From the NCBI GenBank assembly GCA_951406725.2, contig OX597821.1, positions 32,612,001-32,676,000 of the forward strand: 64,000 nucleotides of DNA. Direction: 5' to 3'. Position 1 is the stretch's first letter; every line of letters begins with the position of its first letter. This DNA is from Octopus vulgaris. Its lineage: Eukaryota. Both the position numbers and the translations under genes were made by a program. A model generated the notes under the pieces. The model was not told where the DNA came from. It saw only the letters and a list, made by a program, of their open reading frames with translations, and did no database searches. Of the stretch, positions 4,311-53,468 are shown in pieces.

Positions 4311-4574
4311 GGGATATATAACAAAAGACGAAGACAGGTGGTGTACAAAACAAACAGACGTATTAGTATAATGCTCAGGAATAGAAAAGTCTTTTACGTT
4401 TCGAGCCTACGCTCTTCAACAGAAAGGGACACAGAAAAAACAAGGAGGGAAACAAGGAGAGAAAAAAGGAGAGAAAAAAAGGAGAGAAAAAAGGAGAGAG
4501 AAAAATGTGTGTAATGGCTAACGATCTATCATGGCGACTGGCATCTAACGATCTATCATGGCGATCTATCATGG
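4311..4574 (-). mobile_element. Solo PLE terminal segment (pseudo-LTR) joined to (TA)n
   Basis: Reverse complement matches the 3' end of the PLE at about 29262-29468; carries a hammerhead motif. Confidence 0.85.
4389..4430 (-). ncRNA. Minimal type-I hammerhead ribozyme, A6U core variant
   Basis: Minus strand GUCCCUUU-CUGUUGA-A-GAGC(GUAG)GCUC-GAA-ACGU-A/AAAGAC: stem I, core, stem II, palindromic stem III, GUA cleavage triplet. Confidence 0.7.
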
Positions 4575-5344
4575 CACACACACACATATATATATATATA
4601 CGTGTGTGTATGTGTGTGTGTGTGTGTGTAGTCCTCCTACATATAAATATGTATGTGAGTGTGTATGTATGTGCATGTGTGTGAGTGTTTCTGCGCGCGT
4701 ATAAAATCTATGTACGTAAAGAGAGAGAGCGCAGGAGAGAAAGAGAGAAACAAACAAAAATAAATATGCTGGATGAACGAATGGACCGCGGGTTATATAA
4801 AATACACGAAAAACTGAAGAGCATGTACCTTTCTAGCTCTTGCTGCGAGAGCCCACCTTTCTATCTTCCCCAGTGTCTCATTGATTCCATATGGTGGCAA
4901 GAGATAAGCAAACAAAAAATACGAAATGTCTCTTGCTTGAAATTCTGTTGGTTTTGTTTTGTTTTGTTTTTTTATAAATACTGCAAGACGAATAAAATAA
5001 GGAAACTAAATCTATTAAGAGTTAAGTTTGGTTTCGACTAAAATAAACTAAATGGCTTCTGTTTTAATGTTCTAAAGTTGAGATCTAAAGCACACACTCA
5101 TGTATATAAGTATATATACGTATGTAAATATACATATATATATATATATATATATATATATATATATATATATATATATATATATATATATATATATATA
5201 TATCTCACACACTTACATGCACACAAGCGTGTCTGTGTGTACATATATATATATTTACATACATATATACCTATCTGAGCCTACTGAAGTTGTTATAGTT
5301 GTAGCAGCTATTGCATTTCTGGTTTTAATATTGTTCTTATTGTT

Positions 5345-6200
5345 CGGCATTTCTTCCGTTTTTACTTTACGAGTTCAAATTCCACCGCGATCGACTTTGA
5401 CTTACATCTGTTCGGAGACAATAAAATAAGCACCAGTTGAATACTGGTGTAGATGCATTCGACTAACCCCTCATCCGAACTTGCTGGCCTTTTACCAGAA
5501 TTTGAAATTAATGTTGTTCTTATTGTTAAAACAGAGAACTGGCAGAATTGTGAACGCGTCAGATAAAGGCTTCGCTGCATTTCTTCCGACATATGTTGCA
5601 GGAATCAACTTTGCCTTTCACCTTCGATGTCGATAAAATAAGTATCAGTTGAGCACAGGTGTCGATGTAACCTATTTCTTTATTACCCACAAGGGGCTAA
5701 ACATAGAAGGGACAAACAAGGACAGACATAGGTATTAAGTCGATTACATCGACCCCAGTGCGTAACTGGTACTTAATTTATCGACCCCGAAAGGATGAAA
5801 GGTAAAGTCGACCTCGGCGGAATTTGAACTCACAACGTAACGACAGACGAAATACCGCTAAGCATTTCGCCCGATGTGCTAACGTTTCTGCCAGCTCGCC
5901 GCCTTACAGGTGTCGATTTAACCGATCAGTCCCTCCTTCAGAATCGCAGGCCTCGTGCATATAGAAGAAAGGAATATTGTTATTGCTGTAATGACTGCGA
6001 ACTGGAAGAATCGTTATCACTTTGCGCAAAATGCTCAGCGGTATTTCGTCCTTCTTTAGGTTCAAATTCCGCCAAGGTAGAGTTGCCGTTCAATTCGGTC
6101 AAGGTCGATAATATAAGTATCAGTTGAACACAGGGGTCGATGTAATCGACTAACCCCTGTTTTAAGACTGCTGGCCTTATGCCAAAATTTAAGACCAAAA
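5345..6200 (+). mobile_element. Cluster of three degraded, older family-A-related SINE copies (about 5345-5510, 5535-5960, 5998-6200)
   Basis: Diverged GTTCAAATTCC...GTCGATAAAATAAGTA...GGTCGATGTAATCGACTAA modules. Confidence 0.7.
5673..5905 (-). mobile_element. SINE family A, full length, nested in an older copy
   Basis: Reverse complement of the 3043 element; 18-bp TSD ACAGGTGTCGAT(G/T)TAACC at 5655-5672 and 5906-5923. Confidence 0.92.
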
Positions 6201-7309
6201 TTGACCTTAATGTTTCTGGTCATGTTTTTCATCATCACTACACTCACCGTCCTCTTCTGCATCTCTTCAAGCTTCTTCCTTATCTGCTTCTTGCTTCTAC
6301 TTTATCATGTCTTTTTCTTCGTTTTCTTTATTTCTTCCGTCGTTTTCATTCTCGTCTTTGTTCACTCCCCTTCTTCTTCTTCTTCTTCTTCTTCTTGCCT
6401 TTATCGTCTTCTTCTTCTTTTCCTTGTTTTGCAGTACCTTCTCCTTCCCTTCTTCTCTTCTCCTCACCATCTCATTCTCTTTATGCTTCATCTCCACTCA
6501 CTATTTTTCTTCATACCCGTTTCCCCTTCATTGTTCTACTACTTCTGACTTTTCTTCCATCTCATCCAACCCCATTTACATGAAACCAATTCATGCTTTC
6601 TCTTTCCTCTCCCCTCCTCTCTCTCTCCCAATCTCTCTCTCACTTTCATTCTTATCTAAATCCCTCTCCATTCCATCTTATTAAAGATTCTTCAATATTT
6701 CTTTCAAATAACACCCCACCTCATTCTATCTTTTATTATTTCCCATCATATAGAAAACCAACTCAAATACTATTTACATTTAGTTAGAAGACAGCGGCAG
6801 ACATAGAGTGAAGAGACAGACATGGCGGCTGTGTCTTTATATTACTTGTTGCCTACGGTATTAGCCGAACTTCGTCTTGAAAATAGGTTTTTCCGTGACT
6901 GCAACAGATTTTTGGTCAGCTTCCAAACAGTCGACATTGTAAGAAACCACAAAAGTGTCGATTTTATTCTATTGTCCACTTTAGTGTTTGTAATTAATGT
7001 TGTGATTGTATATACTTAATTAACTTAATTTCATTTTATGAAGTCTTGAGGTAATTAATTTGAATCTTGGACTTGGTTATTTTATTCATTCAGTTACTTT
7101 TATTATTATCATTTTTTTTTCAAATAAACCGATCTGATAGGTGCAGGTGTATAACTGTGTGAGAACGCGTGTGTACATGTGCGTGTATGTACACATATAT
7201 TCATACATATGTATACATATATACACAGATACATACACAAACACACACATATATATATATATATATATATATATATATATATATATATATATATATATAT
7301 ATATATATA

Positions 7310-52059: not shown

Positions 52060-53228
52060 TTATTTTCAAGCCTTCTTATTAATAACTGTATTATTTCTTT
52101 TCAGGTAAAATGACATTTCACTATTCAAAGGAAGATATCAAACATTATTTGTTGCAACTTCTATTAAAAATTGATAAAATGTGTCATCATTGTGTTAACA
52201 ATTACCTTCTGGAAAACAGTTTAGCCACTGATGTGCATGCTGAAATAGTTGCTACATTAGGGTATAACACCAGCTTTATCAACAGTGAAAAGTGAGAAGC
52301 TAAATTTGGGAGGGGAAGATTGTCTTGAAGATGATGTTCTGCTACTGCACCACCGAGAAATATATTGATCGTGTTCACCACATGGAGACAAATGACAGGC
52401 CAATGAATGTGAATCAAATAGCCAATGCTATCAGCATATCCCGTGATAGAGTTGAGAATATTCTGTACAATGAACGTGGCATGACGAAGGTTTCTGCTCA
52501 GTGGGTGCCACGTCTTCTGACACCTGATGAAAAGCGCACCAGACCTATTCATCACAGAAAAACCTGAAAGTGTGTCCGTGGCAGATCCAGTTGGTTTCTT
52601 TGAATATTTCTTAATCTACGACGAATATTGGCTTCAACACATTCAACCAGAGACCAAGAGGCAATCCATATAACGCTCCAAATCTGCTTCAAAGAAAGCC
52701 ATGTCGTTTTGTCTTCAGGAAAGGTGATGGCTTCAGTTTCTGGACGCAAAAGATACGGTGTTTTTTTTACAGTATGCAAAAAGACCACTCCATCTATGGA
52801 GGGTATTATGCCAGCTTTCTGAGATAGTTACGAGAGGCTGTCAGGATCAAACACCCAGGAAAACTGGTAAAAGGGTGCTTGTTTCATCAGGACGCTGCTC
52901 CAGCACACAAATTGTTGGTTTTAATGGCTGTTGTGCGTGACTGCGTCTTTGAGCTGGTTTATCAACCTCCCTATTCTCATCATTTGTCCCCATCTAATAT
53001 GCGTTCCCCAGCATAAAAGAACACGTGACTGGGAAAAAAGTATCGCAATGATGACGTTACGTCTGCTGTTCATAACCTTCTTGACCAACAGGATATAAGC
53101 TGCAACACCAGTGGGATCCAAGTACAGCAACACACCAGCAAGGGGAGGGTGTGGACTGCAAGGGGGACTATGTTGAAGAATAAACCACATTTGATCACTT
53201 ACATAAGTGTATCTTGTCCCTTGTGGAT
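52060..53228 (+). mobile_element. Mariner transposon, near full-length transposase pseudogene
   Basis: KVSAQWVPRLLT (WVPxxL), SGKVMASV, FHQDAAPAH, QPPYSHHLSPS, GDYVEE*; many frameshifts. Confidence 0.9.
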
Positions 53229-53250
53229 ATATATATATGTATATATATAT

Positions 53251-53468
53251 ACAATTGCAGCGTGGAAGGTGTTTGTAAGCCATTTAAGAAACACACAAAA
53301 GCCGTTCGATTCACTTCAACATTTAAGTTTAATTCGTCAAAATATTTTCGTCGCTTTAAGACCGCGACCTGTTCACTGACAAAAATCCGTGAAACTTAAA
53401 TGTTGAAGTGAATCGAACGGCTTTTGTGTGTTTCTTAAATGGCTTACAATTGTTTTCGCTGCAATTGT
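53251..53468 (-). mobile_element. Fold-back mini-element with perfect 58-bp arms enclosing a hammerhead
   Basis: Arms 53273-53330 and 53392-53449 plus outer 12-bp arms 53251-53262 and 53457-53468; adjacent to (TA)n. Confidence 0.85.
53333..53383 (-). ncRNA. Minimal type-I hammerhead ribozyme with swapped G3-C8 pair
   Basis: Minus strand UUUGUCA-GUGAACA-G-GUCGC(GGUCUUAAA)GCGAC-GAA-AAUAUU-U/UGACGAA. Confidence 0.7.

Follow-up and report, generated by a model that had tools for sequence, protein, structure and literature searches.

How can one short stretch of a genome hold several unrelated sets of the same small ribozyme, and do the differences between these sets keep them apart? The question is raised by a 64,000-nucleotide stretch of Octopus vulgaris DNA (G000:C8:32612001-32676000, from assembly G000 of 2.8 Gb in 227 contigs), the whole of which is called the window here. 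An earlier note had seen in it about 10 hammerhead motifs, attributed them to Penelope-like elements (PLEs) and proposed that the palindromic stem III of each family acts as an orthogonal dimerisation code. The analysis presented here favours, with good confidence, a different account of the palindromes. In this account, the window holds scattered, mostly truncated 3' ends of several PLE families, whose type I hammerheads likely cut tandem RNA as dimers. Self-complementarity of stem III is selected, while the choice of the palindromic word itself is likely drift.

The number of motifs in the note holds, in that 13 hammerhead-derived sites from six repeat families (A to F) were found, but only four of them are complete with a perfect palindrome, and most copies in the window are dead pieces. 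Two sites, one of family E and one of a relative of it, had been missed. Every named site belongs to a genome-wide repeat, with 1468 first-look candidates for family A, 339 for B, 208 for C, 252 for D, 674 for E and 254 for F (best 40 scored each).

The sites were sought with a purpose-made descriptor of the type I hammerhead, which accepts any Watson-Crick 3-8 pair, leaves position 6 free and makes the palindrome optional, while demanding stems I and II, A15.1...U16.1 and an NUH cleavage triplet. Families A, B, D and F show all of the demanded features, as does family C, with U10.1.U11.1. Seven matches to the descriptor were found in the window, and the palindrome is perfect in four of them; 30 local dinucleotide shuffles averaged 1.1 matches and never gave a palindromic one. 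A sample of G000 made up of 160 10-kb stretches at round coordinates had 60 matches, compared with 14-37 in each of 10 shuffles of these 1.6 Mb; perfect palindromes numbered 20 against 0-2 and C3-G8 cores 32 against 0-4. The motifs thus exceed what shuffled sequence yields. The density of palindromic matches in the window (4 per 64 kb) is about five times that of the genome sample (0.8 expected; hand-computed Poisson probability of about 0.009, for a window chosen post hoc). A scan with Rfam gave no hammerhead family among the matches listed (150 of 180), which were microRNA models on hairpins and microsatellites, all under gathering scores.

Hammerheads behind protein-coding elements

The window's single clear PLE gene is 5'-truncated and frameshifted. 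It comprises part of a reverse transcriptase (RT) at 27117-27884(+), followed at 28051-28584(+) by a zinc-finger linker (CPRPRCRTC) and a GIY-YIG endonuclease. A family A hammerhead with the word ACGU lies at 29337-29364(+), 752 nt past the endonuclease, in the 3' pseudo-long terminal repeat (pLTR) of the element. The ACGU that had been reported at 29329 is thus present, but an extra A trims stem I to 3 bp. Across this site and two other loci (L017 and L193), 752-891 nt separate the end of the endonuclease from the hammerhead behind it, and in a further locus (L023) an open reading frame (ORF) begins about 190 nt downstream of the motif. Family A is the pLTR of an RT/GIY-YIG element. Its parent is Neptune-like, to judge from linker and anatomy. 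The linker fits the Neptune-type pattern CX2-5CxxC before the endonuclease, a pattern that also fits Nematis (PMC8557442). The Neptune-type endonuclease-positive PLEs described there share the RT, the linker and the C-terminal GIY-YIG domain, as well as microsatellite targets, an inverted 5'-truncated arm and a 3' tail.

Three other family A sites lie on the minus strand. Those that had been placed at 4389 and 11385 are complete ACGU hammerheads, at 4395-4422(-), inside a 5'-truncated pLTR piece of about 4311-4540, and at 11391-11418(-). The site near 13685, rightly described as mutated, has a broken palindrome (ACCU) at 13691-13718(-) and a change in stem II, with about 430 bp of the element's 3' untranslated region upstream. 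The family A core reads CUGU(N)GA, an A6U variant (as in the copy at 4395-4422) that the note had left unremarked, and otherwise agrees with the type I core. Among 32 copies from unselected stretches and the window, 29 carry A6U. Position N7 is C in 10, T in 9, A in 10 and G in 3 of these copies, at H17, A occurs in 22, T in 8, C in 2 and G in none, and each of the other core and palindrome positions is kept in 28-32 copies. As only N7 and H17 vary freely, which is what hammerhead chemistry permits, selection appears to have acted on the hammerhead fold in the master copies.

Two other families, D and F, also lie behind genes. Family D is represented by a pLTR end with an inverted arm at 53251-53468(-), in which the AAUAUU reported at 53333 belongs to a complete hammerhead (53340-53376) with a 7-bp stem I and the core GUGAACA, a G3-C8 swap of the catalytic pair. 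G3 was found in all 41 and C8 in 40 of 41 aligned copies (mostly top matches, inverted arms included). A 571-bp piece ending in the hammerhead matched 560-571 bases at 99-100% identity in 40 of 40 scored places, and the family is very young, probably recently active and probably still mobile. Its predicted parent (L136/L286) has 487 open codons with RT-like motifs, a linker of the same type as in family A (CQSNCAVC) and a GIY-YIG domain, upstream of the hammerhead. Profile scores were E 1.1e-4 for GIY-YIG and only E 0.075 for RVT_1. Although the linker type is equal, tblastn gave no match between the D parent and the family A RT, and an Atlas search with the D parent returned only unnamed RT-like clusters. 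The parent locus (G000:C3:20008150-20012831) is a very young PLE insertion with two inverted arms. At about 8310-8345(-) of L136, stem I is preceded at a distance of some 16 nt by a branch-point-like CTAAC and TTTCTTAG, the site where many short D copies begin. By analogy with Penelope of D. virilis, the site is possibly an intron end or a template start.

Family F appears in the window as an inverted pair of truncated pLTR ends at 49910-50153, with AAUU at 50008-50020(-) and a mutated plus arm. As the note had it, the site near 50010 is partial, the core being lost at the inversion junction. Elsewhere the F core reads UUGAAAA; of 18 copies, 15 have U3-A8 and three have G8. An endonuclease is encoded upstream in four of four fetched stretches and is 51-56% identical to that of D. 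Because of this endonuclease, F is no longer taken for a 744-bp mini-element (L117). Families D and F are, on this evidence, related families of predicted protein-coding elements that differ in catalytic pair and word.

The 3-8 pair covaries among families, being C-G in some, U-A in F and G-C in D. Further G3-C8 candidates occur in two clusters of the census described below, F6 (three intact copies, with A6G) and F15 (one copy). Older relatives of family F (L186, L148 and L125) have C3-G8 or U3.G8, which suggests a stepwise route to U3-A8 in this lineage. U3-A8 is known from natural hammerheads, along with A6C of low activity, U10.1.U11.1 and palindromic stem III (PMC3088659). A natural G3-C8 core was not found in the literature searched, most subscription papers, including Lünse 2017, lying outside that search; the swap was found described only as an engineered partial rescue (C3G/G8C; PMC11167929). 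It may already have been described (Lünse 2017).

Compact families with no gene found

The note had also proposed non-coding mini-elements mobilised in trans. B and probably C are such ORF-less mini-elements, with mobilisation in trans likely; D and F are not, being truncated ends of protein-coding PLEs.

Family B is a non-coding mini-element, a closed unit of 446 bp. In the window it forms a partial head-to-tail tandem after a (TA)n run at 7304-7925(+), and the ACCGGU seen at 7579 belongs to a hammerhead with a canonical C3-G8 core at 7584-7631(+) (stem I 7579-7636). The third pair of stem I is kept in 25 of 26 copies, reading U-A, U.G or C-G, and the fourth in 24 of 26. Partial head-to-tail tandems with a period of 438-453 bp were found in 8 of 25 loci, and about 2.5 units stand at G000:C6:118635610-118636710. 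No contiguous PLE ORF was found in these 25 loci of about 3 kb (best 40 candidates scored; a longer parent is possible). PLE fragments near B in two loci (L036 and L050) were rejected as a parent, as microsatellites, an inverted arm or unrelated DNA intervene.

In being an ORF-less unit that is repeated head to tail, measures a few hundred bp and bears a type I hammerhead, B is like non-LTR retrozymes and non-autonomous PLE derivatives (PMC7229834; bioRxiv 10.64898/2026.07.22.740005; PMC8557442, which also covers PLE anatomy, linkers and the non-autonomous Chlamys). Retrozymes derive from pLTRs (bioRxiv 10.64898/2026.07.22.740005), and B resembles a pLTR turned structurally autonomous. Unlike retrozymes, B forms no long arrays but is scattered as monomers and as partial tandems that have inverted arms (at most about 2.5 units seen), and it carries a minimal hammerhead; family C is only about 135 bp long. 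Contigs from runs guessed to be RNA, aligned to B, showed no pile-up of ends, in data that are unable to show cleavage or circles. A splice-donor-like GAG/GTAAG lies about 40 nt past the B cut site (window 7660-7680(+)). In one such run (X5), two contigs leave the B unit at 7672, one of them 1220 nt long at a depth of 539; this may reflect splicing from a pLTR intron or merely another genomic copy.

Family C is present as a fold-back insertion at 14198-14402, an inverted pair with hammerheads at 14341-14379(+) and 14281-14319(-), in which the junction trims stem I to 3 bp. The full family C hammerhead has a 9-bp stem I, U10.1.U11.1, a C3-G8 pair, a GUA cleavage triplet and a stem III of 4 bp, whose loop is palindromic. 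The "ACAGU" that had been read as a palindrome at 14340 is one strand of this stem, ACAG/CUGU, which closes an 8-nt loop (U-U/A-CUAG-UC). The loop has two main forms, UUCUAGUC (30 copies) and UACUAGUC (16 copies), with one other. With such a stem, the C hammerhead could fold as a monomer.

Copies of C are up to 100% identical, and an inverted arm was seen in 39 of 40 scored matches to a query that spanned the junction. Three copies with the core in unselected stretches also start within stem I, which points to a likely unit of about 135 bp, and C is probably a non-coding mini-element. About 25 loci share an identical fold-back junction at the start of stem I, which would reflect self-priming of cDNA at a hot spot or else a master copy in hairpin form. 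As in B, no contiguous PLE ORF was found in the 20 loci of C and the 15 of E, each about 3 kb long (best 40 candidates scored; a longer parent is possible).

In family E, about 100 nt separate a CUGAUGA half from the GAA-ACGGCCGU downstream of it, stem I is only about 2 bp long and an extra base precedes GAA. The copies are old (82-91% alike, best 40 scored), and activity is doubtful. A relative at 9820-9909(+) has both halves, a long stem II and a mutated GAA, and the piece at 31875-32054(+) (31923) has only the 3' half, with a mutated palindrome; these are the two sites that had been missed. A third piece, at 32451-32615(+), has GAA ACGGCCGU A at 32499-32510. The palindrome reported near 32500 is thus real, but the site has no degenerate core, its CUGAUGA half having been lost by 5' truncation.

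Stem III words and pairing between copies

Within a tandem transcript, U16.1 of a copy would pair with the GAA-A15.1 strand of the copy before it. Stem I would likewise form across two copies, as follows from double-hammerhead geometry. The 4-nt words leave a monomer unable to close stem III. Predicted folding energies favour the dimer over two active monomers in B (-10.5 against +9.8 kcal/mol) and D (-24.8 against -13.4 kcal/mol). Signs of PLE insertion accompany the motifs, namely TA-rich targets, truncated arms in inverted orientation and a pair of 3' end sites separated by about 60 nt; tandem copies or inverted arms, 3' tails and microsatellite or AT-rich targets were found in B, C, D and F. 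To judge from this anatomy, a PLE protein likely acts in trans to copy B and C. In a studied PLE, insertion in vitro is independent of cleavage and two RT start sites explain the 3' tail (PMC11167929). The placement of hammerheads behind GIY-YIG genes in A, D and F agrees with the note's attribution of the motifs to PLEs and identifies them as pLTR hammerheads.

Words were compared in a census of all 2.0 Mb sampled, in which 148 of 308 matches were kept (near-palindromic, score of at least 7) and fell into 26 clusters. Removing seven that are probably chance (F9, F10, F12, F14, F17, F18 and F23) and adding C left 20 families. Unlike the shuffle-tested counts, the census was pre-filtered for near-palindromes, and F19 is entered by its majority word (three of four loci). 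Within families the palindromes are conserved, as the earlier note had expected. Between related copies of subfamilies, double changes preserve self-complementarity (AGAGCUCU/ACAGCUGU and AUCGGUCCGAU/AUUGGACCAAU), which supports pairing, and hence cleavage, as dimers.

A selected code, in which the dimer interface of stems III and I serves as self/non-self recognition against cross-cutting among co-resident PLEs and mini-elements, is nevertheless improbable. In its favour, the 20 families have about 16 different words, the sisters D and F differ (AAUAUU and AAUU) despite endonucleases that are 51-56% identical, and related U3-A8 families bear ACGCGU, ACUAGU or ACAUGU. However, four words (ACGU, ACCGGU, ACGCGU and ACGUACGU) each occur in two families without detectable flank similarity (A/F8, B/F15, F7/F25 and F19/F21). 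Among the 15 perfect words, these four identical pairs compare with 1.8 expected under a uniform-pair model (P of at least 4 = 0.10) and 4.8 under the observed position frequencies (P of at most 4 = 0.49); C follows A15.1 in 15 of 20 words. Unrelated families thus reuse words no less than chance would have it, which leaves the orthogonal code of the earlier note unsupported. Word sharing is also frequent elsewhere, ACGU standing in 29 of 56 published examples by our own count, including pairs within one genome (PMC4209133, Fig. S3).

Comparing families by pairing counts only, a fully complementary stem III was found in 7 of 190 family pairs. Of these, four allow a cross stem I of 0-1 bp and three one of 3-5 bp on one side. 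That only three of 190 pairs combine both features could speak for a code, but divergence alone predicts low cross-matching. Moreover, dimers would arise in cis in tandem transcripts, so that pairing in trans is probably rare. As stem I also joins both copies in a double hammerhead, families would be kept apart mostly through stem I, with no need for selection of a code; diverged families would fail to cross-cleave mainly as a by-product. The palindrome is under selection for self-complementarity, yet on present evidence there is no family code. No tests of hammerhead heterodimers in retroelements were found in the literature searched. A natural hetero-tandem occurs at L201, where hammerheads of two families (ACGCGU and AGAGCUCU) stand 460 bp apart on the same strand, at 199(-) and 658(-).

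The second alternative keeps the fold for a non-cutting role, such as a protein-binding or template-folding signal near the RT start, with cleavage being incidental. Supporting this, catalytic mutants leave insertion in vitro unaffected and cleavage needs the protein (PMC11167929), while family A tolerates A6U, in family E stem I has 2 bp and GAA is preceded by an extra base, and stem I is the point at which C copies begin and fold back. The absence of G at H17 in 32 copies of A and the covariation of the 3-8 pair, by contrast, are both best explained by catalytic geometry, and this alternative is considered unlikely.

Little probability is also given to a fuller form of recognition, in which a ribozyme that works only as two copies would be addressed by stem I and the palindrome together, sister families (D/F and F7/F13) would re-key both this address and the 3-8 pair, and mini-elements of 135-446 bp would ride with keys of their own. 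That the motifs are chance matches in AT-rich repeats or inverted-repeat artefacts is very hard to credit, for while the shuffled background is considerable and three window matches (2517(-), 2802(+) and 30785(+)) look like chance and were set aside, the excess of palindromic matches and C3-G8 cores and the expected position behind GIY-YIG genes argue otherwise.

Several observations weigh against the preferred reading of selected dimer cleavage and drifting words. Even as dimers, the PLE hammerheads that have been published show low cleavage (PMC4209133), one depends on its protein and gives no RNA ends at the cut site (PMC11167929), and only one of nine Xenopus dimers cleaved, the other eight failing (bioRxiv 10.64898/2026.07.22.740005). 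Changes at A6 gave low activity (PMC3088659), and 29 of 32 copies of the largest family here carry A6U. In no case was the active dimer the fold of lowest energy, and the A and F dimers were less stable than two open monomers. Since the folding energies lack core tertiary terms and rank the active dimer below first, they carry little weight. Finally, the sharing test covers 15 words and has low power, so that weak avoidance is possible, and three of the seven pairs matched in stem III permit a cross stem I of 3-5 bp on one side.

Neighbouring repeats and wider meaning

Microsatellites are abundant in the window, which also contains other repeats. A repeat of about 400 bp, which we take to be SINE-like (short interspersed nuclear element), has at least eight copies (8773-9146, 9364-9759, 26722-27121, 47173-47592, 56085-57121 and others), one of which adjoins the truncated PLE at 27121. 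A family of about 230 bp (3041-3275, 5670-5904, 34488-34679, 38546-38782 and 61035-61261), with an older related subfamily, gave no hammerhead match to the descriptor in the window. A short repeat with an inverted arm beside (TA)n (16176-16329 and 41605-41703) resembles a PLE end and likewise has no hammerhead match. No descriptor match was found in the repeats at 160-290, 3030-3290, 8770-9150, 16160-16345, 41595-41710 and 45425-45550. An AT-rich minisatellite at 44052-45433 has 44 copies of a 31-bp unit (93-bp higher-order). Open frames at 14931-15452(+), 48438-49094(-) and 52202-52615(-) presumably derive from other transposon genes, fragments of which they resemble; they gave no Pfam match at E 0.01.

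Minimal hammerheads in pLTRs, with several families per genome, palindromic stem III, U3-A8 cores and low dimer activity, have been described in metazoan PLEs (Cervera & De la Peña 2014, PMC4209133). The octopus families are alike in their type I topology, the base between A9 and stem II, the palindromic stem III, the number of families per genome, the predominance of single truncated copies, the opposite-strand pairs and U3-A8. Both family-specific and shared palindromes are already known from Fig. S3 of that paper, where Aedes families, for instance, differ (CGCG and GGCC). The present families differ in having G3-C8 cores (D, with candidates F6 and F15) and a large A6U family, neither of which appears in any of the 56 rows of that figure, and longer words (6-12 nt) are commoner here. 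An arrangement in which pLTR hammerheads would cut mostly in pairs is likewise known. The double hammerheads of avocado sunblotch viroid and newt satellite (Forster 1988, via PMC4209133 and PMC3088659) are similar in that a weak stem III is rescued by two-copy pairing; here, the motif lies within retroelement termini, with minimal stems and variant cores.

The role of hammerheads in PLEs is still debated, and this genome provides a natural test set, with at least 20 families and about 35,000 intact-looking motifs by extrapolation (20 per 1.6 Mb to 2.8 Gb). The sister pair D/F and the word-sharing pairs make a comparison of homo- and heterodimers direct. A selected code would matter more if true, but the data lean against it. 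Most worth following are the variant cores, above all the G3-C8 core of family D, which is protein-coding and very young. Should they be active, G3-C8 and A6U would widen the natural hammerhead consensus, and whole families would then be escaping standard descriptors.

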